Assembly: GCA_963777495.1 (NCBI GenBank)
Contig: CAVZQM010000004.1
Location: 426,715 to 490,714, forward strand
DNA: 64,000 bases
Direction: 5' to 3'
Source of the DNA: an uncultured Actinomycetes bacterium
Lineage (GTDB): Bacteria; Actinomycetota; UBA4738; HRBIN12
Each line of letters opens with the position of its first letter. The first letter of the stretch is position 1. Below are positions 12,141-48,101 of the stretch, one piece after another. The position numbers and the translations under genes are program-made. A model generated the notes under the pieces. It was given only the letters and a program-made list of their open reading frames with translations. It did not search any database and was not told the DNA's origin.

Positions 12141-12209
12141 CCCACTGGGTTGTCGGCCGGCAACGGCCCGGACTTCAGTCCGATGGACAGAACGGGTGGT
12201 CACAACGGG

Positions 12210-13184: not shown

Positions 13185-13197
13185 CGTTCACCTCCTC

Positions 13198-13949: not shown

Positions 13950-14765
13950 GTGACGGCCAGGAGCGGATCGGATCCACAGGAACGCCACGCCCTCGAGCGT
14001 GAGACCGACGACGACCGCCCCGATGCCGATCGGCGAATCGAACGCGCCTTCGATGTTGCCGCGCGACGTCATCCAGAGGAACGCGAAGAAGCCGATGGGC
14101 AGCAACCCGAGGATGGCGCCGGAGAGTCTCGCCTGCGCGGTGAGCGCTCGGACCTCGCGTGCCGCGGAACGCCGTTCCCGGAGCGTCATCGGCAACCTGG
14201 TCGAGGACGTGCGGCAGGTCGCCGCCGCTCCGCCGGTGCAGTCCGAGCACGCCGACGACGAGCCTGGCATCGTCGGACCCGACGTCCTCGGCCCACGCTT
14301 CCAGGGCATCCTCGAGACCGCCTCCGAGGCCGACGCTGTCCACGACCCGCTGCGAGCGCGGTCGCCAGAGGCGGCTCGCCCTCCTTCGAAGCGAACGCGA
14401 TCGCCTGCGGGACCGACAGCCCGGCGCGCATCCCGGCGGCGAGCGATCGGACGGCGTCGGCGAGGTGTTCGTCGAGCGCGGCCGTCAGCCGGGCATCGGC
14501 GCCGGCGCTGCCACGCGGTCGTGCCGAGCCGGACGGCCAGGAAGCCCACCACGGCTGCGACGGGTCCCGACACGAACCAGCCGACGAGCGCTCCGACGCC
14601 CGGCCACCACCGCCAGCCGATCTCCGGGATCGCCGGCCGAACGACGCTCCGCGACCGGCGCGACGATGGCGCGATCCGAAGGTTCGCATCGGCACGGGCG
14701 GTGTTCGCGACCGCGAGGGCCGCCAACAGGCCCGCGACGATGATCGACACCGACGCTGCGATCAT
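13946..14765 (-). pseudogene. tadB: TadB (T2SS F-family membrane protein), at least 3 frameshifts
   Basis: The ATG overlaps the tadA stop (ATGA). The pieces MIAASVSIIVAGLLAALAV.., ..LADAVRSLAAGMRAGLSVPQAIAFA.., ..LEDALEAWAEDVGSDDARLVVGVLGLHRRSGGDLPHVLD.. and ..REVRALTAQARLSGAILGLLPIGFFAFLW.. lie in different frames. Confidence 0.7.
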
Positions 14766-16020: not shown

Positions 16021-16309
16021 GCTCACCGCGGCACCCGAACGTCGTCGTCCGCGTCGCGGCGGCGTACCGTGATCGCCTCGCCCATCTGCCTTGCCTTCCT
16101 CACCGGTACCACGAGGGGAAGGCACGACCGGGGAAGCACGGAGGGAGAGGTCCGTCGGGCGGAGCGGGGACTCCGTTCGACGGAGCCGCACAGTACCGCG
16201 GGGGTTCGATCGGAACCATCCCCAGACCGGCGGATTCTCTCTGGCGCGGGAGTGATGCGCAGGGGTCAGAAGGGGTGAGACGACGTGACCGGGGCTACTC
16301 CTTGAAGGG

Positions 16310-21012: not shown

Positions 21013-21065
21013 GAGCACGATCGATTCTCCCCCGGGAGCTGGGTGTTCCTTGGAGCGTTGTCCCT

Positions 21066-22133
21066 TTACACAACCCCTTCCAGGCGGCCCGCCAGCCGAT
21101 CGAACGCTCTCCCGGGCCGGCTGCGTGCCCCAAGGAGCCGGCCATGATCCTGCGCTCGCGTCGCGCGCCGGTCGAACGGCACGACCGCGAGCGGCTCGCA
21201 ACCGAACACGCGCGCGACATCCCGCGGCGTGATCTCCGCGCGGGATGCGCGATTCACGACGAACCCGAGCTTCCCGTCGACGCCGAACGGTCGGAGCGCG
21301 TCCACCGCGCGTTTGGACGAGCGGAACGACAGGACGTCGAGCGCCAGCACCTCGACGATCCGGTCCGCCGTCTCACACCCAACGAGCGTGAACGCGTCGA
21401 CCGCGTGCGGCACGTGCAGGACGATCACGTCCGCCGCCGTCGCCGCGACATCCACCACCCGTCGAACGAACGCCGCCTCGATCGCCGGCATGTTCGGCGG
21501 CGGGGAGAGCAGGACCCGGAACGCCTCGGGGTGGGTCCAGTACGTGTCGTCCAGATGCGTCGTCGTGAGCTCGGGACCGAGGGGTGCCAGATCGGCGAGG
21601 GAATGGACGTCCTGCTCGGGTGCCCCGACGGCCGCACCCACCTCGCCGTAGAGAGGGTCGGCGTCGATCAGCACGCAGGCCCTCCCCCTCCGGGCGAACG
21701 CCCGCGCTAGGTGGGTCGCCACGAACGTGCTTCCCGCGCCACCTCGGGCGGCGTGGACGGCGATCACCGTGGCGCGCCGCTCGAGCAACGCGGGACCGGC
21801 GCGGCTGGCGGCGGCCGCCGCCGACAGCGCCTCGCGATCGGCCGGCCAGACGAAGAACCCATCCGCGCCGGCACGGATCGCGGCTCGTAACGCCCCAACG
21901 GATTCGCGGGTGTCCACGGCCAGGAACGGCGGCGTCCGGGTCACGTCCACCACCACCGAGGGTTGCCCGACGACCGCGTCGGGTTCGAGCTGGCGGAGCG
22001 CCTCGATCAGCTGGCGGTCGTCGGCCGCGGTGGCCACCACCCGGGCATGCCCGCTCCGGTCGAGGAAGTGCATGACCTCCTCGGCGACATCATGCTGCTC
22101 CATGGCCAGCACGATCCTGGCGACTTGGTCCAT
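21066..22133 (-). CDS. CpaE/TadZ-like protein (receiver-like N-domain + ParA/MinD-type ATPase)
   Basis: AAGGAGG ribosome-binding site before the ATG at 22133. The sequence contains IAVHAARGGAGSTFVATHLA (deviant Walker A) ...VLIDAD... and resembles Rv3660c-type proteins at the head of actinobacterial Tad loci. The gene is intact. Confidence 0.75.
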   Translation of the reverse strand: MDQVARIVLAMEQHDVAEEVMHFLDRSGHARVVATAADDRQLIEALRQLEPDAVVGQPSVVVDVTRTPPFLAVDTRESVGALRAAIRAGADGFFVWPADREALSAAAAASRAGPALLERRATVIAVHAARGGAGSTFVATHLARAFARRGRACVLIDADPLYGEVGAAVGAPEQDVHSLADLAPLGPELTTTHLDDTYWTHPEAFRVLLSPPPNMPAIEAAFVRRVVDVAATAADVIVLHVPHAVDAFTLVGCETADRIVEVLALDVLSFRSSKRAVDALRPFGVDGKLGFVVNRASRAEITPRDVARVFGCEPLAVVPFDRRATRAQDHGRLLGARSRPGRAFDRLAGRLEGVV

Positions 22134-22281
22134 GTTGCCCCTCCTTTGCGCCACGAGCGATCGCTGAACGAGCGGGAGAGGCTGCAGGCTGAAGACCACT
22201 TCGCGAGTACGTCGGCACCATATCGACGGGTACCGACACGAACACGCGGGCGCGGCTGGACCGCGCTCCGCGGAAGGGAGC

Positions 22282-22330
22282 GGGTCGCCGGCCGGGGTTG
22301 ACGCACGCTATGGACCCCGACCGGCGACCC
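22282..22330 (-). terminator. Strong hairpin between the repeat-protein gene and the cpaE-like gene
   Basis: GGGTCGCCGGCCGGGG (22282-22297) pairs with CCCCGACCGGCGACCC (22315-22330). This is a 16-bp inverted repeat with one mismatch and a 17-nt loop. A weakly T-rich tract follows on the minus strand. Confidence 0.4.
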
Positions 22331-25018: not shown

Positions 25019-25164
25019 CGGTGTCCTCTCGATGAAATCCGCGGCCGGGGGACCGCGGTCACGTGCGTCCGGGGAAGGCTACCGCGCATCCCCCGGAACG
25101 CGCAAGTACCCACGTCACCGGCCTAGTCCAAGTGATCGATGCGTGCCACGACCCTTCGCCCGAC

Positions 25165-28100
25165 ATGGCCGTCGCTAGACTCGTCGCCGTGATCGTCTGC
25201 CCCCGATGCGGCACGAAGAATCCGGAAGGCGCCCGGTTCTGCCTGAACTGCGGGTCGCCTCTCGAAAACGTGTCCACCGGCGAAGAGCGCAAGGTCATCA
25301 CGGTCGTCTTCTGCGATCTGGTCGGCTTCACGGAACGCTCCGATCAGGCCGACCCCGAGGACGTCAAGGCGATGCTTCGCGTGTACCACACGCTGCTGAA
25401 ACGCACGATCGACCACTTCGGCGGGATGGTCGACAAGTTCATCGGCGACGCGGTGCTGGGTGTGTTCGGCGCGCCGGTGGGACACGAGGACGACCCCGAG
25501 CGCGCCATCCGCGCCGCGCTGCAGATCCTGGACGACGTCGAGGAAGCGAATCGGGCGCAACCCGGCCTGGAGCTGGCCGTCCGCATCGGGATCAACACCG
25601 GCGAGGCGGTGATCGCGTTCGGCCAAGGACCGCAGATCGGCGAGAGCGTGACGGGTGACGTCGTGAACACCGCGTCGCGACTGCAGAACGTGGCGACGAC
25701 CGGGACCATCGTCGTCGGCGAGGCCACGTACCACGCCACGTCCGCCGTCTTCGAGTACGACGAGCTCCCGCCGGTCACGGTGAAGGGCAAGGCGGACGCG
25801 CTGGCCATCTGGCGGCCGCTCCACGCCCGCAGCTTGATCGGCATGGACGTCCGCGAGCAGCAGCGCACCACGTTCGTGGGGCGTGCCGAGGAATCGGCAA
25901 CGCTCCGCCAGGTCTTCCGGAAGATGGAGGAGTTCCGCGAGCAGCTCGCGCGCGTGGGCTCCCCGCAACTGGTGACGGTGATCGGCGAGCCGGGCGTGGG
26001 CAAGACCCGCCTGCTGCGCGAGTTCTCCACGTTCATCGACGAGCTGCCCGACCTGATCCGCTGGCGCCAGGGACGCTGCTTGCCGTACGGCGACGGCGTG
26101 GGCTTCTGGGCGTTCGGCGAGATCGTCAAGGCGCAGGCCGGCATCCTGGACTCCGACGATCCCGGGCAGGCCGCGGCGAAGCTCGCCGAGGCGGTCGACG
26201 CGGTGGTCGACGATCCCACGCAACGTGACTGGATCCGACGGCGCTTGGCTCCGCTGATCGGGGCCGGCGCCGACTCGACGGACGTCCCGCGCGAGGAGCT
26301 GTTCACCGCGTGGCGCCGGTTCGTCGAGGCGCTGGCGTTCGAGGGCCGGCTGGTGTTGGTCTTCGAGGACCTGCATTGGGCCGACGTCCCGATGCTCGAG
26401 TTCATCGAGCACCTGATCGACGCCGGCGAGCGCCCGTTCATGGTGGTGTGCGCGGCGCGGCCCGAGATCTACGACCGGTACCCGCAGTGGGGCGAGAGCC
26501 GGCGCAACGCCATCCGGATGGCGCTCCCGCCGCTCACGGACAGCGAGACCGCGGTGCTGATCTCGTCGTTGCTCGAGCGCGCCGTCCTGCCCGCCACGAC
26601 GCAGTCCATCCTGATCGAGCGGTCGGGGGGAAACCCGCTGTTCGCCGAGGAGTTCATCCAGCTGCTGGTCGACCGTGGACTTATCGACCTGGAAAGCCAC
26701 GATCGCCCGGTCGCCGAGCTGCACGACATCCCCGTGCCCGAGTCGCTGCACGCATTGATCAGCTCGCGACTGGATCAGCTCCCCCACGAGGACAAGACGC
26801 TCCTGCAGGACGCGGCGGTGATCGGCAAGGTCTTCTGGTCCGGCGCGCTCGCCGCGTTGTGCGGGTGCGACGAACCGTCGATCGCCGCACGCATCGAAGA
26901 CGTGGTGCGCCGCGAGCTGGTGCGTCCGAACCGCGCGTCCAACCTGCAGGGGCAGACGGAGTACACGTTCTGGCACGCGCTGATCCGCGACGTGGCGTAC
27001 GGCCAGATCCCCCGCGCGGGGCGCGAGCTGAAACACCTGACCGTGGCGCGCTGGCTGAAGGAGACCGTATCCGACCGCATCTCGGATTTCGCCGAGGAGC
27101 TCGCCTACCACTACGGCGAGGCGCTGGACCTGGCCGAGGCGTCGGGGATCGGGGTCGCGCCCGACGTGCGGGCCGAGGCCGCCGGCGGGTTCCTGCTCGC
27201 CGGTGAACGCGCGGCGGGGCTCGACGCGGATCGGGCGACGGGCCACTTCCAGCGCGCCCTCAGCCTGATGACGGCCGATCACCCGCTGCGGCCGCGCGCG
27301 GCGGCGCGGGCGGCCGAGATGGCCGAGGCGCGTGGAGACTACGAGGAGGGCGAGCAGCTCTACGTCGCGGCGATCACCGGGTACCGGGTTCTCGGCGACA
27401 CGCTCGGCCTGGGCGAGGCGCTCGGCCTGCTCGCCCGCACGCATGCGCGCCGGGGCGAGAACGCGCGCGCGGAGCAGCTCTTGACCGAAGCCATCGAGGT
27501 CCTGGAGCGGGAGCCGCCCAGTCGCGAGCTCGCCCGCATCTACTCGCGCAAGACCGGCGAGCTGCTCACCGGCGATCGCAACGCCGAGTGCCTGGAGTGG
27601 GCGGAGAAGACGCTCGAGCTGGCCACGCGTCTGAACCTGCGCGACGAATACGTCCGGGCGCTGCAGTTCCGGGGCTCGGCGCGGTGCGAACTGGGTGACG
27701 AGCGTGGCCTGGACGACCTGAAGGAGGCGATCCGACTGGGCGAGGAGGCCGGCCTCGGGCAGGCGCTGGCGCTCGCCCGGGCGAACTACGCGTTCCAGCT
27801 GTGGTTCCGCGAGGGTCCGGCCGCGGCTCTCCAGGTCTGGCGCGAGTCCCAGACCACGGCGGAGACCCACGGGTTCGTGGGTCTGGCACAGATGGCCCGG
27901 ATGGGACAGCTGGAAACGCTCTTCGACCTGGGCCGATGGGACGAGGTCCTCACGATCTGCCGCCAGATCCACGCGTGGATCCGACCGCGGGACGAGGGCA
28001 CCGAGCTGGGCGTGTACGCCACCATCTTCGAGAGCTGGGTGCACTTGCGACGCGGGGAGACCGACGAGCTGTCGGTCGCCGATCGATTCCTCGACCGGGC

Positions 28101-28650
28101 GCTGCCGTTCGGCGGGGAGTTCGGCGCACCCGCCGCCCTCTTGGTGGCGGAGACCCGGCGCGAAGCGGGAGACCGGGCAGGGGCACGGCTCGCGCTCGAC
28201 CGGTTCGTCGAGATCACCGAGTCGTCGCCGAACTTCCGGGCGCTGTTCGCCCCCATCGCGGTCCGGGCGCTGGTCGCGCTCGGCGACGCCGATGGCGCCG
28301 AGCGGTTGATCCCCGACCACGCCGACGCCCGGACGAAGCGCCACCGCGTGAGCCTGCTGACGGCCAGGGCGGTGGTCGCGGAGGCGCGGGGCCGATACCC
28401 CATGGCGTTCGACGGCTACCGGCAGGCGATCGCGCAGTGGCGCACGCACGGGTTCCAGCTGGAGCTGGGCCTGACGCGGATCGGTGCCGCTCGGTGCCTG
28501 CTGGCGCTGGACCGGCGCGACGAGGCGGCCGACGCACTGGCCGAGGCGCGCGACGTCCTGCGTCCACTCCGCGCGGCGCCGGCCCTGGCCGAGATCGCCG
28601 ACCTGCTGGGCAACGACTTCGAGCATCAGCTGGATCCGACCGGGGCGTGA
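25165..28650 (+). CDS. Zinc-ribbon + class III adenylate/guanylate cyclase + AAA/STAND NTPase + TPR-like signalling protein
   Basis: Sequence CPRCGTKNPEGARFCLNCG, then the cyclase core VITVVFCDLVGFTERSD...KFIGDAVLGVFGAP...RIGINTGEAV...GDVVNTASRLQ. A P-loop (VIGEPGVGKTRLL) and a long helical repeat C-terminus follow. The gene is intact. Confidence 0.9.
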   Translation: MAVARLVAVIVCPRCGTKNPEGARFCLNCGSPLENVSTGEERKVITVVFCDLVGFTERSDQADPEDVKAMLRVYHTLLKRTIDHFGGMVDKFIGDAVLGVFGAPVGHEDDPERAIRAALQILDDVEEANRAQPGLELAVRIGINTGEAVIAFGQGPQIGESVTGDVVNTASRLQNVATTGTIVVGEATYHATSAVFEYDELPPVTVKGKADALAIWRPLHARSLIGMDVREQQRTTFVGRAEESATLRQVFRKMEEFREQLARVGSPQLVTVIGEPGVGKTRLLREFSTFIDELPDLIRWRQGRCLPYGDGVGFWAFGEIVKAQAGILDSDDPGQAAAKLAEAVDAVVDDPTQRDWIRRRLAPLIGAGADSTDVPREELFTAWRRFVEALAFEGRLVLVFEDLHWADVPMLEFIEHLIDAGERPFMVVCAARPEIYDRYPQWGESRRNAIRMALPPLTDSETAVLISSLLERAVLPATTQSILIERSGGNPLFAEEFIQLLVDRGLIDLESHDRPVAELHDIPVPESLHALISSRLDQLPHEDKTLLQDAAVIGKVFWSGALAALCGCDEPSIAARIEDVVRRELVRPNRASNLQGQTEYTFWHALIRDVAYGQIPRAGRELKHLTVARWLKETVSDRISDFAEELAYHYGEALDLAEASGIGVAPDVRAEAAGGFLLAGERAAGLDADRATGHFQRALSLMTADHPLRPRAAARAAEMAEARGDYEEGEQLYVAAITGYRVLGDTLGLGEALGLLARTHARRGENARAEQLLTEAIEVLEREPPSRELARIYSRKTGELLTGDRNAECLEWAEKTLELATRLNLRDEYVRALQFRGSARCELGDERGLDDLKEAIRLGEEAGLGQALALARANYAFQLWFREGPAAALQVWRESQTTAETHGFVGLAQMARMGQLETLFDLGRWDEVLTICRQIHAWIRPRDEGTELGVYATIFESWVHLRRGETDELSVADRFLDRALPFGGEFGAPAALLVAETRREAGDRAGARLALDRFVEITESSPNFRALFAPIAVRALVALGDADGAERLIPDHADARTKRHRVSLLTARAVVAEARGRYPMAFDGYRQAIAQWRTHGFQLELGLTRIGAARCLLALDRRDEAADALAEARDVLRPLRAAPALAEIADLLGNDFEHQLDPTGA

Positions 28651-33957: not shown

Positions 33958-34860
33958 ATGGCACTCAGAGAGGCTCAGCGGGTCGGGCTGACGGACGAGC
34001 AGCGCCAACGGTTCGAACGCGACGGCTACCTGATCGTCGAAGACGCGCTCGACACGGCACTCATCGCGCGGTTGGTCGACGCCGTCGACCGGGTCTGGTC
34101 GGCCCATCGCGATGGTCCCCCGGTCGCGGGCGCCGATCCGCTGCACCTGCTCGCGTTCGTCGGACGCGATCCGCTCTTCCTGGAACTGCTCGACCACGAA
34201 CCGATCCTCCACCTGGTCGTCGACCTCTTGGGATGGAACGTGTTCGTGCACCACTGCCACCTCGACGTCCATCCTCCGATGGACGGGCCCTCGCCACGGC
34301 GGTGGATGTGGCATCAGGACGGCGGGCTGCAGAACCGCGACCTGGAGACGCATCCGCGGCCGAGGATGTCCGTGAAGGTCGCGTACTTCCTGTCGGACGT
34401 GAGCGAGCCGGGACGAGGGAACTTCTCCGTCCTGCCGGGCTCGCACCTGCGCGACACGTTGGAACGGCCGCCGGACGACGACAACGATCTCGCCGGAGCC
34501 GTTCCCGTCCTCGCCCGGCCCGGGACGGCGGTGCTGTTCGACCGGCGCCTGTGGCACATGCGCGGAGAGAACCGTTCGTCGCTGACCCGCCGGGCGCTGT
34601 TCTACGCGTACACCTACCGGTGGGTGCGGGCACGCGACGACATCCACATCCCGCCCGAACTGTTCGACACGATCACCCCGGTCCGCGCGCAGCTACTGGG
34701 TGCCGGCGCGAGCGCGGTCGGGCATTGGATGCCCGCGGACGTCGACGCCCCGCTGCGCACATGGGGGGACATCAACGGCGGCGGACCCGCTGGTCGACGC
34801 ACGGCGGCAAGCTCCCGCCGTTCGGATCCTTCAGTGCAGAGCCCCGTTACGAGCCGATAA
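33958..34860 (+). CDS. Phytanoyl-CoA dioxygenase (PhyH) family Fe(II)/2-oxoglutarate oxygenase
   Basis: Sequence QRQRFERDGYLIVEDAL..., WHQDGG, ...AVLFDRRLWHMRGEN. Confidence 0.85.
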   Translation: MALREAQRVGLTDEQRQRFERDGYLIVEDALDTALIARLVDAVDRVWSAHRDGPPVAGADPLHLLAFVGRDPLFLELLDHEPILHLVVDLLGWNVFVHHCHLDVHPPMDGPSPRRWMWHQDGGLQNRDLETHPRPRMSVKVAYFLSDVSEPGRGNFSVLPGSHLRDTLERPPDDDNDLAGAVPVLARPGTAVLFDRRLWHMRGENRSSLTRRALFYAYTYRWVRARDDIHIPPELFDTITPVRAQLLGAGASAVGHWMPADVDAPLRTWGDINGGGPAGRRTAASSRRSDPSVQSPVTSR

Positions 34861-35407
34861 GCTGATCGAGCGTCGCCTCCAGGTCGGGCTCCGAGAGCAC
34901 GCCGTGCACGACCTGGGCGGTGCCGTCGTCGTTCACGAAGACCCAGGCGGGCTGGTACGGAACGCCGAAGCGCGACCCAGAGCGAGCCGTCTTCAGACAC
35001 CGCTTGTGGGAACCTGAGGAGAACGCATCGACGAACCCTTGCATGGCGTCGGCGGAGTCGTGACCGCCGATGCCCAGGAACTCGACCCGACCTGCGTAGG
35101 CGCGCGAGACCCGCGCGACTTCAGGGGCTTCCCCCTGGCAGATCGTTCACCACGGCGCCCAGAACCAGATGGCAACATCCTTCCCGACGTAGTCGCTTCC
35201 GTTCACCGAGCCTCCCCCGAGGGAGGGAGCCGAGAAGTCCAGCACTTCGGGCACGCCGGCGGGAGGTTCGACGCTTCGAGACGAAGGGACGGCGGTACGG
35301 GTCGGGCCGTTCGCGGCGATGGGGTCGGTCGACGAGCACGCGACCGCGACCGCCGCTAGGGCGCCGATCAGAAGCGGTGCGAAGGTGAGCCTCGACGGAT
35401 GCTTCAC
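34847..35407 (-). CDS. TlpA/ResA-like thioredoxin-fold lipoprotein; in-frame TGA at the first Cys of the CxxC motif (candidate selenoprotein); also a short compensated double frameshift
   Basis: GTG start after AGAGG and a lipobox LIGALAAVAVAC. The active site reads DVAIWFWAPW-TGA-TICQGEAP, with the TGA at 35147-35149 in the same frame as the downstream ORF 34847..35044. The segment between about 35020 and 34978 reads better in another frame (LRFPQAVSEDGSLW). Confidence 0.7.
35116..35146 (-). promoter_or_regulatory. SECIS-like stem-loop immediately 3' of the in-frame UGA
   Basis: The mRNA reads UGA A CGAU CUGC CAGGGG GAAG CCCCUG AA GUCG. It can form a 4-bp lower stem, an internal loop, a perfect 6-bp upper stem and a GAAG apical loop. 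Confidence 0.45.
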
Positions 35408-35444
35408 GGAACCTCTCGGGAGCCGCTCGTCGTAGTGTGGGCCG

Positions 35445-36033
35445 GTGCCGAACATGCAACCGCTGCGGCGGGAAGACCACCCCGAACTCGAGGCGCTCTT
35501 CCGTCATTATGACGAAACCCTGAGCTTCGTCCCGAACAGCCTCTACACGATGGCCCGACGGCCCGAGATCCTGCGCGCGTTCAGCGAGTTGATCACCCAG
35601 ATCTGGAACTCGGGAACCCTCCCCACAGCCGCTGAAACCGCTGATCGGGATCGTCTCGAGCATCGCGGCGGGCTGCCGGTACTGTCAGGCGCATGAGGCC
35701 GTCGACGCTCGGGAGCGCGGCGTGCCCGACGAGAAGATCGCGCAGATCTGGAACTTCGAACGGTCGACCTTGTACGACGAGAGCGAGCGCGTGGCGCTGC
35801 GGTTCGCCCGAGACGCCTCCCTCGTGCCGAACGAGGTGACGCCGGAGCACTTCGAGGCGCTCCGTCTCCACTGGGACGACGGTCAGATCGTGGAGATGCT
35901 CGCCGTCGTCGGATTGTTCGGCTTCCTCAATCGGTGGAACGACACGATGGCGACGCAGATCGAAGATCGACCGACGGAGATCGCGCACGATCACTTCCGC
36001 GAGCATTGGGAGCCGGGCAAGCACGCGGGTTAG
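35445..36033 (+). pseudogene. AhpD/carboxymuconolactone-decarboxylase-family (peroxidase-related) protein, one frameshift
   Basis: The N-terminal part MPNMQPLRREDHPELEALFRHYDETLSFVPNSLYTMARRPEILRAF..IWNSGTLP is in one frame. The rest (LKPLIGIVSSIAAGCRYCQAHEAVDARERGVPDEKIAQIWNFERS...) is in another frame and carries the AhpD-type CxxC motif. The break is at about 35625. Confidence 0.75.
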
Positions 36034-36057
36034 GCACCTCCGGGATCGCGACGGGCC

Positions 36058-36094
36058 GAGCCCGCCGACCTGGGGTTGACGGGTCGGCGGGCTC
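36058..36094. terminator. Bidirectional terminator hairpin between convergent genes
   Basis: Perfect 13-bp inverted repeat GAGCCCGCCGACC (36058-36070) / GGTCGGCGGGCTC (36082-36094) with an 11-nt loop. Confidence 0.5.
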
Positions 36095-36114
36095 GCTCGT
36101 CGACTAGGAGTCCT

Positions 36115-36470
36115 CTACATCACGTCCAGCGTCGTCGATGCGAGCCGGTCGCACGTCGCGTGCATCGCCTCGTACCTCGGCGCGATCGCGAGGTAGTTGC
36201 CGTGCGCATCCATCAGGTGGATGTTCCAGCGGCCCGCGTCGTTGGCGCGGGTCTTGCCCTGCAGCTCGCGTCCGTCGGCCGTGATCTCGAAGACCTTCAC
36301 GACCCGGTTGACCCGGCACTCCGCGTTCGGCGACCGAACCTTGCCGTGGAACACCTCCGTGTCGTGGTTGAACCTGATCGAAACGGTGCCGCCCACCGCC
36401 CATGCCGCCTGCGTCGACGCCCAGCGACATGACGACGGTCGCGAGCACGATCGCTGCCCTTCCTCCGCAT
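36115..36470 (-). pseudogene. Small secreted beta-rich protein (hypothetical), 2 frameshifts within the signal-peptide region
   Basis: GGAGGA ribosome-binding site before the ATG at 36470. The reconstruction is MRRKGS/AIVLATVVMSLG/ASTQAAWAVGGTVSIRFNHDTEVFHGKV...; its three pieces lie in three frames. The mature part is intact to the stop at 36115. Confidence 0.5.
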
Positions 36471-36575
36471 GCGCTCCTCCTCGTGTGTGCGTTCGGACGA
36501 GGGTCACGCTATGTCCGGCACCTCACGACCTGGTTGCGCGGTCCTTACGCCGCCCGAAACTCTCGGTCCGGGTCG

Positions 36576-37787
36576 TCACGATGCGGGCAGTTCCACGGCG
36601 AATCGGGTGCCCACGGCCGGTCGGCTCTCCAGGACGATCGATCCGCCCATGGCCTGCACGATCCGCTCGGCGAGCGCGAGGCCCAAGCCCGCCCCGGCCC
36701 CGCTTCGAGCCGGATCGCCCCGGAAGAACGGCTCGAACACGCGTGGCAGATCGGCCTCCGCGATCCCCTCTCCGGTGTCCTCCACGGCCACGGTGAGGCC
36801 GCGTTCGTCCCTCACCGCCTCGATCCGCACCGTGCCGTCGGGGGGCGTGTGCCGGACGGCGTTCACCAAGCAGGTTCTGCAGCACCCGGACCAACCTCGG
36901 CGAGCAGGTCGCACCGGCCGCACGATCCAGATCCGAGACGATCGAGAGCCCCTTCATCTCGGCGGTGGGCCGGACCGTCGCGAGCGCCGAACGAACGACG
37001 TCATCCAGGTTCGCGCGCGTGGTCTCGGCCCGGATCACGCCGGCATCGAGCTGCGTGAGCTCGAACAGATCGTCCACCATCGCCACCAGCTGCTCGACGG
37101 AACGACGCATCTCTCCCGAGTAGCGACGGATCGTGGGCGCGTCGACCACGACCCCCTCGTCGACCGCCTCGACCATCGCCCGCAGGCTCGCGAGCGGCGT
37201 CCGCAGATCGTGCGAGACCGCGACGATCAGATCCCGGCGCATGGTCTCGGCCAGGAGCTCGCCTTCACGGGCTGCCCGCAAACGTCGGGCTGCGTCGTCC
37301 AACGACCGAGCGAGCGCATCGAGCTCGGGACCGGCGTCCAGGTCGCCGATCGGCGTGTCGAGCTCGCCGTCGCCGATCCGCTGCGCTCCCTCGACCAGCC
37401 GATGTACGGCCTTCGTGGAACCCGAGGCCAGCACCAGGGCGAGCGCGACCGCGGTGCCCGCAGCGAAGACGACCAGCAGCATCACGACCGCCAGGTCGTG
37501 CTCGCTCACCATCATGAGCTTGGCCATGACCGCCAGGTTGGCGAGCGCGACGCCGGCGCCCAGGATCGCCACGACCAGGAACCGGTTCCGCAACGACGTG
37601 GTCCGGAGCACGGCGTTCGCTGCGACCGCCGTGGCCACGGTCACCACGGTCGATCCGACCAGCGGCACCAGCAGATGCGCCAGGTCGCCGAACGACATCC
37701 CCATCAACGCACCGACGCCCAGCCCGGCCAGCGCGCCGAGCAGGCGACGGCCACGACCAGCGCGATCACGCGCAGCGTCTCCCTCAT
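36576..37787 (-). pseudogene. Sensor histidine kinase (HAMP + HisKA + HATPase_c), 2 frameshifts
   Basis: The ATG overlaps the regulator stop (ATGA). The H-box is RRDLIVAVSHDLRTPLASL. The ATPase part LLVNAVRHTPPDGTV...DTGEGI...FEPFFRGD...GAGLGLALAERIV is in another frame. The breaks are at about 37740 and about 36868 (extra T). Confidence 0.85.
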
Positions 37788-38468
37788 GGCTCGAACCGGT
37801 ACCCGACGCCCCACACCGTCAGCAGATGCACCGGTGCCGATGGATCCACCTCGATCTTCTCGCGCAGCCGGCGGATGTGGACCGTGACCGTGGCGGTGTC
37901 GCCATCCCACGCGAAGTCCCAGACCGCCTCGAGCAGAGCCGTTCGGGTGAACGTGATGCCCCGGCGCCGACGCCAGGTGCTCCAACAGGTCGAACTCCTT
38001 GCGGGTGAGGTGGACGTCGCGATCCCCCACACGCGCCTCCCGTCGCCCGCGATCGATCAGCACGTCGCCGAATCGAAGCACGTCATCGTGTTCCGTTCCC
38101 TGCTCCGTCCGGCGCAGCACGGCGCGGACGCGGGCGATCACCTCACGCGGCGAGAACGGCTTCGTCACGTAGTCGTCGGCACCCAGCTCCAGGCCCACGA
38201 TCCGATCGGTCTCGTCGCCACGGGCCGTCAGCATGATGACGGGGGTCGGGGCGTCGGCGCGCATCCGGCGGAACACCTCCAGTCCGTCGATGCGCGGAAG
38301 CATCAGGTCCAGCAGGACCAGCTGCGGGCGCTCTTCGGCGAAGCTCGTCAGCGCCGCCTCACCGTCCTCGGCGATCGCCACCTCGTAGCCCTCCAGCTCG
38401 AGGTATCGCTGCAGGACCTCGCGAACCATCGGCTCGTCGTCGACGACCAGCACGCGCCGCTTGGTCAT
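37784..38468 (-). pseudogene. OmpR-family response regulator, 1 frameshift
   Basis: The receiver domain is MTKRRVLVVDDEPMVREVL...LLDLMLPRIDGLEV..ADDYVTKPFSPREV. The winged-helix part (TRTALLEAVWDFAWDGDTATVTVHIRRLREKIE...LLTVWGVGYRFEP) is in another frame. The break is at about 37965. Confidence 0.85.
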
Positions 38469-38525
38469 CGGGACATCATCCCGCATCGCCGACGAGTGTC
38501 CGGGTCCGGTCATGACACGCATCCG

Positions 38526-40103
38526 TCACGTCACCTGCACGACCACCGTGTGGTAACCGGTGGCGCCGTCGGGGAAGGGGGGCGCGTTCGCCTCGGTCTG
38601 CAGCATCATCGTCTGGTCGGTCGCGCGGACCTGGAGCTCGTGTTGACCCGGCGTCGCATCCCACATGACGAGCCATTGCCGCCAGGTGTCGACCGTGTCC
38701 TGGGTCGACAGCTCCGCGGGCATCCACGGCCCGCCGTCGACGCGGAGTTCCACCGACTCGATCCCTCGATGCTGCGCCCACGCCACACCGGCGACCGGGA
38801 TCCTCCCCGCGGGGACGCGGCTTCCCCGCGGCGTGTCGATCCGCGACTGGGTCTTGATCGGCGCCTGCTCCGCCCACCCCCGTCGGATCCAATAGGCATC
38901 GAACGCGTCGAACGTCGTCAGTTCGAGCTCCACGATCCACTTCGTCGCCGAGACGTAGCCGTACAGCCCGGGAACGACCATCCGCACAGGGAACCCGTGA
39001 TCGAGCGGGCAGCGGTTCGCCGTTCATCGCGATCGCGAGCATCGCGTCGCGCCCGTCCATCACGACCCCCGTCGGGCTCCCGGCCGTGAAGCCGTCGACG
39101 GAGCGGGACACCAGCTGGTCGGCCGCGGGGTCGACGCCCGCCTCGTCCAGCAGGTCCTTCAGCGGAGCCCCCAGCCAGCGGGCGTTGCCCACGTACGCGC
39201 CCGCCGACCTCGTTGGACACACACGTGAGCGTGATGTCGCGTTCGATCAACGGACGTGCCATCAGCTGATCGAACGTCACGGTCAGTTCGCGTTCGACCA
39301 TGCCATGGATACGGAGCTGCCACTCTTCAGCCTTCACCGCCGGGACGAGCAGCGCCGTGTCCACGCGGTAGAAGGTCTCGTTCGGCGTGATGAACGGCGA
39401 GAGTCCCGGCACGCCGAGGTCGACGCCGGCCGTCGGCCCGGGAGGCCCGGCGGGCGAAGGAAGGTGGACCGCCGCACGCGATGCATCGGCCTCGAAGCGA
39501 CGACCGAACAGCTTGCCCGCGCCCCCCGCCGCGATGGCCGCCACCACGCCCGCCGCCCCGGTCATGAAGAACCGCCGCCGGTCGATCCCCGCGGGGTCGA
39601 CGGCTCCGGTGGGTCCTCGGGGAACGAGGAAGCCAGGACGCGCAGGAACACCGAGAGCATCAGCGCCCCGGCCAGCCCGCCGACCACGGACGGGATCGCG
39701 TCGATCGGATCGGCGGTGGGGCGCGTGAGGGCGGCCGTCACGCCGATCAGGGCGAAGACGGCGAGGCCAACGTAGCCGACCCACGGCCGCCGCAACGCGA
39801 CGACGCCGATCGATGCGGCGACCACCGCGAGCACGACGCCGATCCCGGCCAAGAGCACCGTCTTGTCGTTCGCGCCGAACGTCCTGATGGCGAAGCTCTT
39901 GAGCCACTCGGGCGTCGCGTCGATCGCGGCCCCGCCGACGGCGATGATCGGGGACGCGTCGGGATCGACGATCCCGGCCACCAGCTGCGCCACGCCGACC
40001 GCGACCGCCCCGCAGACCAACCCCACCACGATCCCCGGTCCGATCTGGTGAGCGGGCGTGGGGGCGACGGTGCGTCCGTGGGCGGAGCGAGCGTCTCGGC
40101 CAT
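38526..40103 (-). pseudogene. Membrane-anchored molybdopterin-dependent (sulfite-oxidase-family) oxidoreductase, at least 4 frameshifts
   Basis: N-terminal TM domain, then the Tat-like motif DRRRFFMTGAAG. The Moco domain follows (FITPNETFYRVDT...WQLRIHGMV...LTCVSNEVGG/AYVGNARWLGAPLKDLL...AIAMNGEPLP/LDHGFPVRMVVPGLYGYVSATKWIVELEL) and then the dimerisation domain. The pieces lie in 5 frame segments; one break at about 39008 is an extra C. Confidence 0.8.
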
Positions 40104-40374
40104 GGTCCCAGGATGCCGCACGGATGTTGCCGGACCCTTACGGTCCGCTTTCGCCGCGATACCGACGCTTCAGCCGGCCCCACTCGGGCAGGAGCGTCGA
40201 GGTCGCTCGGCTGGACACCGGCATCTCGGTGCCGGTCACGGCGCCAAGAGCCTAGCCGCTCGCCTCTGCCCGGGAGCTCCTGACGGCAGGGTGCGTTGAC
40301 GGTCGCGCGACCACGCCCGAGACTCGGGGCCAGACGGGACCGGATGCTCCGGTCCGCGTCGAGCTGGGGGATCG

Positions 40375-43103
40375 TTGGGTCGACGGTCGATCGTGCTGGT
40401 GTGCTGCGCCCTGGCGATGGCTTCGATGGCGGCAGCACCCGTGGAACACGCGGCGACACCCCCCGGACAGCGACGGCGTCCGTCGCCCGGGCAACCGCTC
40501 CGCGCCCGAACATCCTGCTGCTGGTGAGCGACGACCAGGCGTGGTCCACGTTCTCCCGCGACCTGATGCCGAGCACGTACCGCGAGCTCGTGGACCAGGG
40601 TCTGTTGTTCAGACGCGCGTACGTCAACACGCCGCTCTGCTGTCCCTCCCGCGCGCAGATCCTGACGGGTCTCTTCGAGCACCACACCGGCGTCGACGCG
40701 AACCCGGTGCCACTGGAACGACCCACGATCGTCGAGGCGCTCCACGACGTCGGATACCGGACGATGCTCGCGGGCAAGTACCTCAATAGCTGGGACACGT
40801 GCGGCCCGCGGCCCGAGTTCGATCGCTGGGCATGCGTCGGAGCTCCCCTCCCCTCGACGTACTCCTTGCTCAACCCGTGGATCAACGAGGACGGTGAGTG
40901 GCAGCGGCGCAACGGCTATCAGACCGACATCCTGGCGGAGGACGTCGTCGAGTTCATCGATGCCACCCCCGCCGACCGGCCGTTCTTCGCGATGTACGCG
41001 CCGACGTCTCCGCACCTGCCGGCGGACGACCCTCGGTACGAGGCCATCGACGTGTCGCCTCCGCACGGCGCATCGTTCGACCAGAACACCCTGACCTCGC
41101 TGAGTCCGCTGTACGCGCGCCGCGCGCCGTTGTCGGACAAGGAGATCCACGACGCCGACGAGCGGTTCCGCAGGATGTCGCGCGCGGTTCGATCGCTCGA
41201 CGACGGGATCGGCCGGATCCTCGATGCGCTGGGCGACCGCTCCCAGGACACCATCGTGATCTACCTGTCGGACAACGGGTTCCTCTTCGGTGAGCATCGA
41301 CGGTTCGGCAAGACCGATGCCTACGAGGAGTCCGTCCGCGTGCCGATGGTCGTGCGCTATCCGGCGCTCCTCGGGCCCGATGAGGCCTCGGCGACGCGGG
41401 CACTGGTCTCGAACATCGACATCGCCCCGTCCCTCGCCGCGCTGGCCGGGTTCCCATGGAACGCCGACGGCCGGTCGCTCGTCCCGCTCATGGATGGATC
41501 GGCTGGCAGCGTCCGCTCCGCGATGTTGATCGAGCACTGCCAAGGCGTGACGCAGGGAACCCCCGCCTGCTCCGGCCTGTCGTTCTACGCGCACCAGACC
41601 CGGGCGGGCGCGTACCGAGGCGTCGTGACGACGCGGTACAAATATGTGCGGTACGACGACGGCAGCCGTGAGCTGTTCGACCTGCAGGAAGACCCCGGCG
41701 AGGTGCAGAACCTCATCGGCGCGCCCGGCACGGCAGGGATCACGGCGTCGCTCCGCTCCAAGCTCGCGGCACTGGGTGGGCCGGTCATCGACACCACGAT
41801 CGCGACCGGCCCGTGGCCGGTCCTCGAAGGCCCTTCCCGGTCGGTCGCGTTCACGTTCTTCTCGCCATCGCGCTTCTCGACGTACCGATGCCGGCTGACC
41901 CACAACGGGGCCGCGGCGAACTGGCACGCATGCGACGGGCAGTTCGACGCGATGGGCAACCTGCCGGACGGCCAGTACACGTTCGAGGTGACCGGCACGG
42001 ATGAGCGGGGCAACGAGGATCCCACGCCGGCGGCACGCAGTTTCACGATCGCCTCGACCGGACCATCGGTCTCGATCGGTGAGCATCCGCCCGCCGCGCA
42101 GACCGGCGGCGATCTCGCCTTCACCTTCTCGAGCCCGATCTCGAGCTCCGCCTTCGAATGTCGGCTGTCGCCCGCGGTCGGACGCCGGGCCGGATGGGAG
42201 GAGTGCTCGGGGTCGGCCGGTTACGCCGGCGTCGCAGAGGGCACGTGGAACTTCGAGGTGCGGGCCAAGGCACCCGGAACGAACACCTGGACCGCTCCGC
42301 CTGCCGGCTGGCTCGTTCGGATCGATCGATCGGGGCCGCGCTTCCTGCTCGCGGAGGGACCGGGCGACGTCACCTCGTCGCGCGAGGCCGCGTTCCGCTT
42401 CGTCGCCACGGAGAACCTCCGGGGGGCGATCGGTTGCCGACTGGACCATCGCGGATCGACGGACTGCAGCGACGGAACGTTCTCGACTTCGGGCCTGCGG
42501 AAGGGCGAGCACACGCTGCGCGTGGTCGCGCCCGATGCGCTGGGGAACGTGGGCATCACGATCTTCGCCTGGACGATCGACTTCGGTCCGCCGAGGGTGC
42601 GCATCGCCCGTGGCCCGGACCGGTACACCCAGATCGCCGAGGCGTCCTTCCGGATGTGGTCGAAGGTCGATCCCTCGCTGTTCATCTGCAAGATCGATGG
42701 GCTGCCGGAGATGCCGTGCGACGACACCCTGTCGCTCGGACCGGTCGACGAAGGTTCGCACACGCTGACCGTGTGGGGCTTGGACGCGGCCTACAACCGG
42801 GCCCAGCCGGTGGTGTACCCGTGGACGGTGGACACGATCCCACCCGGTCTCCTGCTCACGGGTTCACCCGAGCAGGGAGCGGTGACCACCGCCACGACCG
42901 CGGCGTTCGATATCTGGAAGAGCGAGCCCGGGTCGGTGTGGTGCTCGCTCGACGGGGCGGAGTTCATCCCGTGTACGACACCCGCCGTGTACCAAGGACT
43001 CGCGCCCGGACCACACACGTTCCAGGTGTACCTGGAGGATCGGGCCGGGAACCTGTCGATCACGGCGGGCCGAACGTGGACGGTCGCCCCGCTTATCCCC
43101 TGA
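40375..43103 (+). pseudogene. Type I sulfatase fused to seven Ig-like repeats; body intact, signal peptide out of frame at a C6 tract
   Basis: A 935-aa ORF contains PNILLLVSDDQAWSTF...LCCPSRAQILTG and repeats of A.F.F....F.C.LD....W..C.....GL.dG.HTF.V.A.D..GN.D.TPA. The signal peptide (TTG 40375: MGRRSIVLVCCALAMASMAAAPVEHAATPP) is in another frame. Adding one C to the run at 40459-40464 joins the two frames. Confidence 0.85.
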
Positions 43104-45778: not shown

Positions 45779-46327
45779 CTATCGGCGGATCCGACCGATG
45801 TCGCCGCGGAAGCCTTTGATCCACGTGAGCTCGGCCTTCGCCAGCGACTCCTGTCGTTGGAGCATCGACGTGGAGACCGTCCGCCCCGGTCCCTTGTCGG
45901 CGGTGATGCGCGCACGCTCCGTCCTGATCGCGTCGAGCAGGTCGCGGATCGCGACCTCGCGCGCGTCCACCGCCTTGCGCGCGTCGGTCGCGGAGAGCAG
46001 ATGGACGAACCCCAGAGCCAGGCCGCCGTCCGTCTCGTACGGTTCCAGCGCCCCGGCGTGTTCCACGAGGCCGCGCGTCAACCGCTCGCGGCCCGCCTTC
46101 GTGATCCGGTACACGCGGCGATCGGGCCCCTCCGGTCCGTCTTGCGAGCGCCCCGTGATCAGTCCGTCGCGCTCCAACCGGCGAAGCACCTGATAGACGG
46201 ACGCCTTGCCGATCTCGACCCAGAACCCCATCGATCGCGCGCGGAACCGCTCGAGCAGGTCGTATCCGTACAGCGGCTCCTCCGACAGGAGCCCCAGCAC
46301 CACGACCTCCACCTTCGACGTCCCCAC
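45779..46327 (-). CDS. PadR-family transcriptional regulator
   Basis: Sequence VVVLGLLSEEPLYGYDLLERF......ASVYQVLRRLERDGLI......RRVYRITKAGRERL. A GTG start follows GGAAGGGAG. Confidence 0.8.
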   Translation of the reverse strand: MGTSKVEVVVLGLLSEEPLYGYDLLERFRARSMGFWVEIGKASVYQVLRRLERDGLITGRSQDGPEGPDRRVYRITKAGRERLTRGLVEHAGALEPYETDGGLALGFVHLLSATDARKAVDAREVAIRDLLDAIRTERARITADKGPGRTVSTSMLQRQESLAKAELTWIKGFRGDIGRIRR

Positions 46328-46459
46328 GCAACGGCTCCCTTCCTGACGAGGCGGCCACCGATCCACGGCACCCACTGGTCCGTCACGGACCAGTGGCACT
46401 CTAGTCCATAACGGACTAGAGCGCCACGAAGCTCGCGATGGAGTGCGTGCGGTGCACCC

Positions 46460-46861
46460 CTAGATCGATACGCGGCCGACGCAGGTCTCGCCGGTCGACG
46501 GGTTCGTCGCGCGTGCCACGAACCGGTCGGTTCCCGCCAGGTCGTTCGGGTGACGCTCGACCTCGAACGAGCCGCTCTGCCCGTGCGTGGTCCGCGTGCC
46601 CTGGAAGATACGCGCGCCGTTCTGCTTGATGCGGACGTTCCAGTTCTGCCCGTTCACGTTGGAGTCGACCTCGAACTCCACCTCCAGGCCGCCGTCGTCC
46701 GGCTTGGCCTTCAGCTTCCAGTCGGTCCGGCCGCTGCAAGGGCCTCGGGTGATCACTTCACCGTCGTTCCCGCCTCCACCGCCGGCCATCGCCGCGGGCG
46801 CCGTGGTCAGCAGCGAGATGCCCACCAGCGCGGCCACCAGGATCGTGCGTCGTTCCTTCAT
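46460..46861 (-). CDS. Small secreted protein (hypothetical)
   Basis: Signal peptide MKERRTILVAALVGISLLTTAPAAMA followed by a Gly-rich linker and a beta-rich body. I cannot assign a family. Confidence 0.5.
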   Translation of the reverse strand: MKERRTILVAALVGISLLTTAPAAMAGGGGGNDGEVITRGPCSGRTDWKLKAKPDDGGLEVEFEVDSNVNGQNWNVRIKQNGARIFQGTRTTHGQSGSFEVERHPNDLAGTDRFVARATNPSTGETCVGRVSI

Positions 46862-47030
46862 CGTGACTCCCCCTCATCTTCGGCGCGTCGGCTCTCGTCG
46901 CGCTCAGGTACTACGCACAGCATGCGGACGTTGCCCTCAGGGCCAGGGCAAGCTCGAGTAAAGAGACCGGTAAGGGGTTGAGACCGCGGAGAAAGCGTCA
47001 TCCGTGGGGCACCCGGGTACGCTGCTCGGC

Positions 47031-47125
47031 GGAGGCGTCAGGGTTCCTGGTGGGCCCCGCGGTCTTCAACACCGTTGTGGGGGCGCAAGCTCCCAGGCGG
47101 GTTCGATTCCCGTCCGCCTCCGCCA
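47031..47125 (+). tRNA. selC: tRNA-Sec (anticodon TCA), 95 nt with encoded CCA
   Basis: Hand-folded structure. Acceptor GGAGGCG pairs with CGCCTCC, followed by discriminator G and CCA. The anticodon loop is CTTCAAC with TCA at 47066-47068, on a 5-bp stem. The long variable arm has a 7-bp stem closed by a GCAA tetraloop (47078-47095). The T-arm is GCGGG TTCGATT CCCGT. Confidence 0.85.
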
Positions 47126-47223
47126 ACGTGTCTGCATATCGCCGCGACGAGCACCTCGAGGCTGTTTGCGGTGACGATGGAGCCAGCGGTACGCTCCATG
47201 CCCCCCGAAGATGGAGGAACCGG

Positions 47224-47940
47224 ATGCCCGACCTTGGGCTTGGCAACATCCACGGCAGCGCTCTGGGCGAACGAGGCGTCTCCAAACGCTTGGATGCCCT
47301 TGCGGATCTGGCACCACTCAAAGGCGACAGGCTGTTGGATGTGGGATGTGCGGCTGGTGAGTACACGAGAGTGTTGGCGGAAGGGTTCGATGCGACGGAC
47401 GCCATCGACATCGAGCCCGAGCGGTTGGCGGTGTTCTCTCAGGCCCTCACCCACTCGGCGATCGCCGACCGGATCCATGTCCTGAACATGTCCGCCGAGC
47501 AGCTGACGTTTCGGGACGGGGCGTTCGATGTCGTCACGGCCATCGAGACGCTAGAGCATGTCGTCGATCTCGACGCGGCGCTCGATGAGATGCGGAGGGT
47601 GCTGAAGCCGGGAGGGTACCTCCTGGTAACGGGACCCAACCGCTACTTCCCCCTGGAGACTCACGGATGGCTGTGGAAGGGTAAGCGCCACTCGCCAGCC
47701 TCGTTCCCGTTCCTGCCTTGGCTCCGTCCTGTGCATCGCAAGCTCGCAGACGCTCGCAGCTTCACGGTCCATTCGCTCCGTGAGCGGGTGGAGCCTCATG
47801 GCTTTCAGTTGATCGGCTCGTCGTACTTGATGCCGCCGTTCGACCGAAAGCTCAAAGCTCTACGGGCGCTCGACAAGTTGGAGCGCTCACCACTGCGATT
47901 CTTCGGGCTCACGCTGGTGATGGGCTTCCGAGCCGTCTGA
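47224..47940 (+). CDS. Class I SAM-dependent methyltransferase
   Basis: Motif I LLDVGCAAGEY, ...VVTAIETLEHVVD..., and post-II LKPGGYLLVTGPN. GC content is visibly lower than in flanking genes. The annotated ORF start at 46978 would run through the tRNA, so I chose the internal ATG. Confidence 0.8.
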   Translation: MPDLGLGNIHGSALGERGVSKRLDALADLAPLKGDRLLDVGCAAGEYTRVLAEGFDATDAIDIEPERLAVFSQALTHSAIADRIHVLNMSAEQLTFRDGAFDVVTAIETLEHVVDLDAALDEMRRVLKPGGYLLVTGPNRYFPLETHGWLWKGKRHSPASFPFLPWLRPVHRKLADARSFTVHSLRERVEPHGFQLIGSSYLMPPFDRKLKALRALDKLERSPLRFFGLTLVMGFRAV

Positions 47941-48031
47941 CGCACTCCCGAGCAACGGCTGGACGCCACCACCGAGGTCCCAGATCGAGTCTCGCCGTGC
48001 GCTGAGGATGCGCCTTCGGTCGACCTAATCG

Positions 48032-48060
48032 TTGACTTATTCCTATCTAATACATAGGGT
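48032..48060 (+). promoter_or_regulatory. Putative sigma-70-type promoter (TTGACT-17 nt-TAGGGT) with an overlapping 17-bp AT-rich palindrome
   Basis: TTGACT at 48032-48037 and TAGGGT at 48055-48060. The palindrome CCTATcTAaTAcATAGG lies at 48042-48058. AAGGAGG precedes the ATG at 48102. Confidence 0.4.
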
Positions 48061-48101
48061 TTGGCCACACGTGCGTTGCCGACCCCATAAGGAGGAGTCA
48101 C

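Follow-up and report, generated by a model that had tools for sequence, protein, structure and literature searches.

The subject of this study is a minus-strand gene at 35407..34847 in a 64,000-nucleotide (nt) window, the whole stretch of DNA analysed, from contig CAVZQM010000004.1 (assembly GCA_963777495.1) of an uncultured Actinomycetes bacterium. The gene very probably encodes an exported, lipid-anchored thioredoxin (Trx)-fold thiol-disulfide oxidoreductase of the DsbE/DsbF type, in which the nucleophilic cysteine is replaced by selenocysteine (Sec, U) within a U-T-I-C motif. A GGUC-loop hairpin, designated hp2, would act as the selenocysteine insertion sequence (SECIS), and the frameshifts in this copy would be assembly indels.

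The interrupted reading frame

Translation of the window revealed a single in-frame stop in the minus-strand frame 35455..34847, the TGA at 35149-35147, in agreement with a preliminary description of this DNA that had noted two open reading frames (ORFs) in the same frame parted by this codon; what that account described of the sequence was borne out throughout. The TGA stands in the context ...DVAIWFWAPW*TICQGEAPEVARVSRAYAGRVEFLGIGG... and is flanked by GKDVAIWFWAPW before it and TICQGEAPEVARVSRAY after it. The features of the gene are as follows.

34847..35407, minus strand: complete gene, predicted Sec-containing DsbE/DsbF-like (TlpA-superfamily) lipoprotein (ORFs, translation, Pfam, PDB match)
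35455, minus strand: alternative upstream ATG (ORF)
35417-35412, minus strand: GAGAGG (read from the sequence)
35407-35405, minus strand: probable start GTG (aligned with the ATG of relative L038; GAGAGG 4 nt upstream)
35336..35407, minus strand: signal peptide with lipobox, VKHPSRLTFAPLLIGALAAVAVA followed by C (read from the sequence; lipoprotein status predicted)
35338-35336, minus strand: predicted lipid-modified Cys codon (lipobox AVAVA followed by C)
35147..35149, minus strand: UGA codon, presumably read as Sec, first residue of the U-T-I-C redox motif (at least 119 loci; Cys column in homologs)
35138..35140, minus strand: UGC codon, resolving Cys of U-x-x-C (column invariant in the homolog alignment)
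34849-34847, minus strand: stop TAA (ORF)

By inspection, the N-terminus fits a lipoprotein signal, with the n-region KHPSR, a hydrophobic core and the AVAVA lipobox before its Cys. Cys-form homologs carry the canonical lipoboxes LLPACG, VLAACG and LSACS at the aligned position.

Conservation of the UGA codon

One genome per species (GTDB representatives) was scanned with the exact 30-nt DNA pattern TGGTTYTGGGCNCCNTGGTGANNNNNNTGY, which encodes W-F-W-A-P-W-TGA-x-x-Cys. The pattern occurred at no fewer than 119 genome loci, against a chance expectation estimated in this analysis at less than one match. Among the matches listed, almost all carriers belong to the Acidimicrobiia (Ilumatobacter, Microthrix, Ca. 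Poriferisodalis, Aldehydirespiratoraceae and marine MED-G01) or to other Actinomycetota (Nitriliruptorales, Euzebya, Egibacteraceae and unclassified members). Many of the loci come from Illumina short-read assemblies, and this includes the closest relative, L106, an Illumina contig 84% identical to and syntenic with window positions 35002-42790 that has an identical TGA context. The closest relative besides L106, L110, carries the same TGA.

Wherever the sequence reaches the gene end, the frame past the TGA almost always remains open for 89-106 codons before an ordinary stop, often itself a TGA, and the conserved C-terminal half of the Trx fold is encoded after the TGA in all such loci but one (L096). 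At the column of the UGA, 17 database homologs, 118 Cys forms from metagenomes and DsbF/DsbE all have the invariant first Cys of CxxC. The column therefore holds the mixture of Cys and Sec codons that the preliminary description had suggested looking for, with at least 119 TGA loci beside the 118 Cys forms. Since so many loci keep an open, conserved frame and the Illumina-derived L106 shares the identical context, sequence comparison indicates that the TGA is ancestral and maintained, and is neither an error nor a reassigned codon. TGA is the ordinary terminator of most of these genes, and therefore the genetic code has not been reassigned.

Protein family and its cysteine forms

For protein searches, U was replaced by C and the frame was repaired. 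The protein matched the Pfam families AhpC-TSA (PF00578; 48.3 bits against a gathering score of 26), Redoxin (PF08534; 40.5 against 26.6) and Thioredoxin (32.9 against 23.5). Its best relative of solved structure is Mycobacterium tuberculosis DsbF (PDB 3IOS, E = 2e-32), followed by DsbE/MPT53 of the same species (PDB 1LU4, E = 2e-27) and then by ResA structures. The Cys of DsbF WFWAPWCPTC falls on the UGA column of WFWAPW-U-TIC, and the cis-Pro region is kept (YQPAW in the window protein, TQQPAY in DsbF).

No NCBIfam model reached its cut-off for the window protein. The top model was ResA (NF002854), at 57.3 bits against a cut-off of 170; TlpA (NF047696) gave 22.8 against 230, and the WAxxUGC selenoprotein model NF041054, with a cut-off of 300, gave 23.4 bits for the window protein and 29 for a member of class A, defined below. 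By these scores the protein shares a superfamily with ResA and TlpA but is orthologous to neither. The earlier label of a TlpA/ResA-like lipoprotein thus holds at the level of the superfamily, whereas the closest characterised relatives are the mycobacterial DsbF and DsbE.

The full-length homologs in databases are all Cys forms with identities of 49% or less, and when TGA was exchanged for TGY in the pattern, a metagenome scan yielded 118 distinct Cys forms. For every Sec form compared (115/115), the nearest neighbour is another Sec form; the window protein is 78% identical to L110 and 56% identical to its best Cys form. On these sequences, the Cys-form homologs are a separate group. No Cys paralogs were detected in the related Sec loci searched. 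In the public protein collection, the Sec genes are present only as C-terminal fragments of 75-76 amino acids (P0018-P0020) that begin at an internal start codon after the UGA, and no full-length U-containing entries for them were found there. Two metagenome contigs, L211 and L231, encode Cys forms whose nearest sequences are Sec forms and not other Cys forms; both lack the conserved hairpins by inspection and may be Sec-to-Cys reversions.

The tRNA for selenocysteine

A gene for tRNA-Sec lies in the same window.

47031..47125, plus strand: tRNA-Sec gene (selC, anticodon TCA) (ARAGORN; Rfam RF01852, 74.8 bits against a gathering score of 47)

It was located by both programs at 11.9 kb from the TGA, close to the 12 kb previously given, and was the sole match in an Rfam gathering-threshold scan of the whole window. 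The earlier proposal of a Sec-encoding UGA at the position of the nucleophilic Cys is thereby strongly backed on three sides: by the same UGA in at least 119 species, by Cys in that column of the homologs and by a tRNA-Sec gene in the window. Among the matches listed, no related locus contains a tRNA-Sec gene, so linkage to selC fails as a family trait.

Two hairpins downstream of the UGA in the window

The 65 nt 3′ of the UGA fold at -35.5 kcal/mol (z = -3.0) and contain two hairpins, each with a 6-bp stem.

35122..35137, minus strand: hp1, CAGGGG-GAAG-CCCCUG, nt 13-28 counted from the U of UGA; putative clade-specific accessory hairpin (-10.7 kcal/mol, covariation)
35101..35117, minus strand: hp2, CGCGCG-GGUCU-CGCGCG, nt 33-49; likeliest SelB-binding SECIS (-9.8 kcal/mol, covariation, GGUC loop)

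Both were compared with a published model of bacterial SECIS elements (bSECIS; PMC13188914). On every count hp2 agrees with the model, having a 5-nt loop that starts with GG (GGUCU, 35111-35107), a 6-bp stem and a distance of 35 nt from the UGA. The preliminary description had singled out hp1, stating that its geometry fits a bacterial SECIS. Its GAAG loop does begin 15 nt after the A of UGA, or 16 nt counted inclusively as then reported, and both the stem and the distance, which lies at the lower limit, suit the model; the loop lacks the usual G(G/U). As hp2 agrees with the whole model and has a loop like that of E. coli fdhF, while the loop of hp1 lacks the usual G(G/U), hp2 is probably the SelB site, and hp1 would be an accessory element.

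A lower stem, CGAU/GUCG, had also been ascribed to hp1. The resulting 30-nt version (35145-35116) folds at -14.1 kcal/mol (z = -2.4). This stem, however, shows zero double changes, equals its shuffles and overlaps and competes with the 5′ strand of hp2; it is not retained. An outer stem from the minimum free energy (MFE) fold of the window (nt 5-12 with 55-62) was likewise rejected, being paired in only 58%. A search of 34800-35500 against Rfam at a relaxed E-value gave no match.

Family-wide evidence for a GGUC-loop hairpin

RNA comparisons used 116 Sec and 118 Cys sequences. Hairpin stability was discarded as SECIS evidence, and positional pair probabilities were used in its place, because stability does not tell Sec from Cys forms: over the 57 nt that follow the codon, MFE is alike in the two sets. 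In the Sec forms, mean pair probability is focused on nt 22-29/34-41 (p = 0.25-0.47, register sum 4.53, n = 116), with an invariant GGUC tetraloop at nt 30-33. Among the 118 Cys forms, no pair exceeded a mean probability of 0.10. Codon choice is biased at the same place. The Ala codon at +9, which feeds the loop, is GCG in 73/73 Sec sequences against a background of 34%, and the Val codon at +10 is GUC in 108/116 Sec sequences against 53% in the Cys forms. The pair-probability and codon tests are free of class-selection bias.

Two structural classes were distinguished; they were chosen by looking at the structures, which inflates the pair counts given here. Class A comprises 82 sequences, 62 with the GGUC hairpin and 20 with the same hairpin and a bulged C. 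Its stem is 88% paired (n = 62) and has 54 double-change cells against 13.7 in shuffles, with 0/500 shuffles as high; in slid controls, pairing drops to 29-54%. Class B, which holds the window's clade, comprises about 32 sequences. Its equivalent of hp2 (n = 25) is 92% paired and shows 10 double-change cells where shuffles give 1.4; it has a loop of the type A/G-G-G/U-U-N, lies exactly 9 nt further 3′ than the class A hairpin and was recovered unaided by RNAalifold. In the window, L106 and L110, this class B hairpin is hp2, with the loop GGUCU. The loop thus follows the UGA at 26 nt in class A and at about 35 nt in the window's clade.

RNAalifold also recovered hp1 in the window's clade, where it is 79.5% paired and has 7 double-change cells against 2.3 in shuffles, and a shifted-register hp1 covaries in other class B members. 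It is absent from the 82 sequences of class A. The earlier proposal of a SECIS-like hairpin just after the UGA therefore stands in so far as hp1 exists and covaries in the window's clade; the family-wide element is the GGUC-loop hairpin instead. On this comparative evidence, the probable recoding element of the family is a position-fixed, covarying GGUC-loop hairpin that is present in the Sec forms and absent from the Cys forms. Other selenoprotein genes with a GGUC hairpin were sought in the window and in 1.56 Mb of related loci, where only spurious frames were obtained.

It may tentatively be suggested, as an idea more likely to fail than to hold, that the SelB-binding hairpin moved within one orthologous family, from the class A position, which most members keep, by exactly three codons in the 3′ direction in the Nitriliruptoria-like members and the window's clade, where a second, independently covarying hairpin (hp1) arose in the enlarged spacer. 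If true, this would be a worked example of SECIS migration along a coding sequence. If, in addition, the spacer hairpin were functional, through a shorter effective UGA-SECIS distance or ribosome pausing, the arrangement would be a natural two-hairpin bacterial SECIS.

Proposed mechanism

The UGA at 35149-35147 would be decoded by Sec-tRNASec, the tRNA gene of which lies in the window; SelB, docked on a SECIS hairpin a short way 3′ within the coding sequence, would deliver it. This SECIS is proposed to be the GGUC-loop hairpin, in the window's clade hp2 (35117-35101), 35 nt after the UGA; hp1 (35137-35122), which precedes it, may compact the spacer or assist recoding. By homology, the exported and lipidated protein would cycle its Sec-Cys pair between the selenol/thiol and selenenylsulfide states, and so oxidise, reduce or isomerise disulfides of envelope proteins.

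Alternative readings and the state of the window copy

Several observations weigh against the proposal of a functional, hp2-dependent selenoprotein gene, as does the inflation of the class-based pair counts. SelA, SelB and SelD were not found in Pfam scans of about 40 ORFs of the window. Synonymous randomisation gave mean z values of -0.13 for the Sec forms (n = 116) and 0.05 for the Cys forms (n = 118), with no difference between them. The choice of hp2 over hp1 for SelB binding is drawn solely from loop similarity. Finally, a pair of frameshifts scrambles about 14 conserved codons, and if these are real the copy is a pseudogene.

One alternative holds that hp1 with its lower stem is the SECIS that recruits SelB, and that hp2 is incidental. 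The stability of hp1 and its covariation in the window's clade and, in shifted register, in other class B members agree with such a role, as does a loop that begins with G about 15-16 nt after the UGA, a distance close to that in E. coli and at the lower limit that the bSECIS model allows. Against it, class A has only the GGUC hairpin, the loops of hp1 (GAAG, GCGG, GCCG, ACCG and GGC) lack the common G-G/U-U motif that those of hp2 possess, and the lower stem finds no support in double changes. Furthermore, general ribosome geometry would place a hairpin that begins only 9 nt past the UGA at or within the entry channel for mRNA while that codon occupies the A site. Recruitment of SelB by hp1 is accordingly rated unlikely, and hp2 is preferred.

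The frameshift pair raises a second alternative, in which the TGA is genuine and ancestral but the frameshifts exist in the organism as well, so that a former selenoprotein gene has decayed into a pseudogene in this copy and no longer yields a functional protein.

34975..35021, minus strand: out-of-frame stretch of about 14 codons, probable assembly artefact (DNA alignment with L106, L110, L038 and L080)

Relative to these four loci, one base is missing from the window near 35019 and one is added near 34975, in keeping with the compensated pair previously placed at about 35020 and 34978; the alternative frame between them restores the conserved FPQAVSEDGSLW segment. Decay would account for the replacement of FPQAVSEDGSLW by two 1-nt indels and for the frameshifts in several neighbouring genes. 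However, the two shifts cancel out within about 14 codons, the G+C content at third codon positions (GC3) and the conservation of the rest of the gene are intact, and a very high indel density with amino acid identity kept is typical of uncorrected long-read assemblies.

Correspondingly, genes with intact frames in L106 are spread over 2-5 reading frames in the window, with window positions 35436-40184 and 9439-12008 rich in indels. There is one shift in an AhpD-like gene (near 35623) and one in a response regulator gene (near 37960), which retain 80-95% amino acid identity to L106, and there are four in a 552-aa molybdopterin-oxidoreductase-like gene, which retains 62-83%. An exact look-up of the neighbouring PhyH protein, for another assembly of the locus, returned no record. 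Because neighbouring genes carry similar shifts while amino acid identity stays high, the two frameshifts are most likely assembly indels rather than decay, leaving the gene intact in the organism; a pseudogene is improbable. A second sulfatase copy in the window is also frameshifted.

It is vanishingly improbable that the TGA arose as a sequencing error or by a recent nonsense change from TGC, or that it is a plain stop between two small ORFs. The assembly is error-prone and gene callers do split such genes, but the errors seen in the window are indels and not substitutions, and at least 119 independent species-level genomes, Illumina assemblies, L106 and L110 among them, have TGA at this codon. 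In the fragment after the TGA, the first start codon is Met 35044, and a product begun there would lack the redox motif. The comparisons of error type and of species also uphold the earlier argument that a chance change of TGC to TGA is unlikely.

Gene neighbourhood

The gene divergent from the Sec gene is, as first described, an AhpD-like CxxC protein.

35445-36033, plus strand: divergent CMD/AhpD-like gene with a CRYC motif and one frameshift (profile scan)

Its best NCBIfam match, 'YciW-related (seleno)protein', is below the cut-off. Among the at least 119 loci, this neighbour is shared only with L106, where it is intact and 95% identical in amino acid sequence, and neither the window nor the related loci listed contain ccdA, resB or resC genes beside the Sec gene. 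A conserved redox module, as previously suggested, was consequently rejected, the AhpD neighbour being confined to L106 and CcdA or ResBC partners being missing. In class A loci, genes for dihydrolipoamide dehydrogenase (lpdA, 27 loci) and an E2 acyltransferase (14 loci) lie divergently upstream at about 1-3 kb. Among the matches listed, these are the sole recurrent neighbours, and their carriers are marine and sponge Acidimicrobiia.

G+C content reaches its minimum for the window (0.661) in the stretch around selC, 46000-48100. After selC come a methyltransferase gene (47224-47940) and an AT-rich spacer. Of the genes that flank selC, none matches SelA, SelB or SelD; their Pfam matches are to the HAD, PadR and methyltransferase families.

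Elsewhere in the window, Tad-pilus-like genes (TadE, a T2SSE ATPase fragment and a ParA/CpaE-like ATPase) occupy 12590-15425 and 21069-22307, a 1204-aa adenylate cyclase/AAA/TPR regulator is encoded at 25036-28650, and sulfatase paralogs lie at 11343-12209 and 40284-43103. On the plus strand, 17200-19600 contains a repetitive Thr/Ser/Ala/Val-rich frame (GC3 0.92-0.94) with in-frame TAG codons at 17983 and 18529, which overlaps the minus-strand ORFs 16266-19556 and 17728-21201.

Significance

The finding would add a large selenoprotein clade, of at least 119 species in the Acidimicrobiia, Nitriliruptoria and other Actinomycetota, to a phylum in which selenium use is poorly described; the authors of a 2026 preprint on Actinomarina describe the use of Sec as previously unreported for that group. 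As public sets systematically truncate these genes and no curated NCBIfam model covers them, annotation pipelines miss what is predicted to be an envelope redox enzyme. As it offers over 100 forms with Sec, over 100 with Cys and a GGUC hairpin in two positions, the family also provides a natural data set for the rules of bacterial SECIS elements. The principles of selenoprotein biology are unchanged by it.

Comparison with known systems

Among characterised proteins, DsbF (Rv1677, 3IOS) and DsbE/MPT53 (Rv2878c, 1LU4) share with the window protein the WFWAPWC-x-x-C-x-x-EAP context, the domain length and the cis-Pro region, and are likewise extracytoplasmic proteins of Actinobacteria. They differ in that Cys serves as the nucleophile and that no recoding signal is required in their genes. 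DsbE and DsbF both act as oxidants in vitro, and DsbF is a lipoprotein. ResA, TlpA and CcmG/DsbE belong to the same superfamily and have a similar membrane-anchored topology (ResA structures, E = 1e-11 to 1e-12); the window protein nevertheless scores far below the family cut-offs, and CcdA, ResB and ResC do not adjoin it. The ResA-like WAxxUGC selenoprotein ('UGC-containing TlpA', NF041054) is also of the TlpA superfamily and also has Sec after a W-A-x-x context, but its model is 354 aa long with the motif UGC, and the window protein falls far short of its cut-off.

The E. coli fdhF SECIS is likewise a coding-sequence hairpin 3′ of the UGA with GGUC(U) in its apical loop. This loop is AGGUCU in 5419/5426 genomes, and G23 and U24 are its essential positions for SelB (PMC8659212). 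In fdhF the distance from the UGA to the loop start is 17 nt and a U is bulged out of the 5′ strand, whereas here the distance is 26 or about 35 nt, and an extra hairpin fills the spacer only in the window's clade.

Trx-fold UxxC selenoproteins have been catalogued since 2004-2008 as 'Prx-like thiol:disulfide oxidoreductase' or 'Prx-like 1' (PF00578), 'Redoxin family protein' (PF08534) and 'thiol:disulfide interchange protein' (Kryukov & Gladyshev 2004; Zhang & Gladyshev 2008, PMC2398784; 2026 catalogue PMC13188914). The Prx-like and Redoxin families share with the window protein the PF00578/PF08534 Trx fold and a UxxC motif in which Sec takes the place of the N-terminal Cys; they too have many Cys homologs and, close behind the UGA, a SECIS hairpin within the coding region. 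They were defined mainly from Deltaproteobacteria and marine reads, unlike the actinobacterial DsbE/DsbF-like lipoprotein clade described here, and the window protein is likened to 'Prx-like thiol:disulfide oxidoreductase' (exemplar WP_010940744.1, Geobacter) by family definition and not by sequence. The GOS study reported one read with neighbouring Prx-like 1 and AhpD-like 2 genes; in the window, by contrast, the AhpD-like neighbour is a Cys (CRYC) form. Since the gene fits the catalogued Trx-fold UxxC kind, it is an additional family member and not a new type. As judged from sequence, it is a genuine selenoprotein gene of a kind already known, and what is modestly new is how widely it occurs in Actinomycetota, that curated models and protein sets lack it, and that its SECIS hairpin takes two positions.

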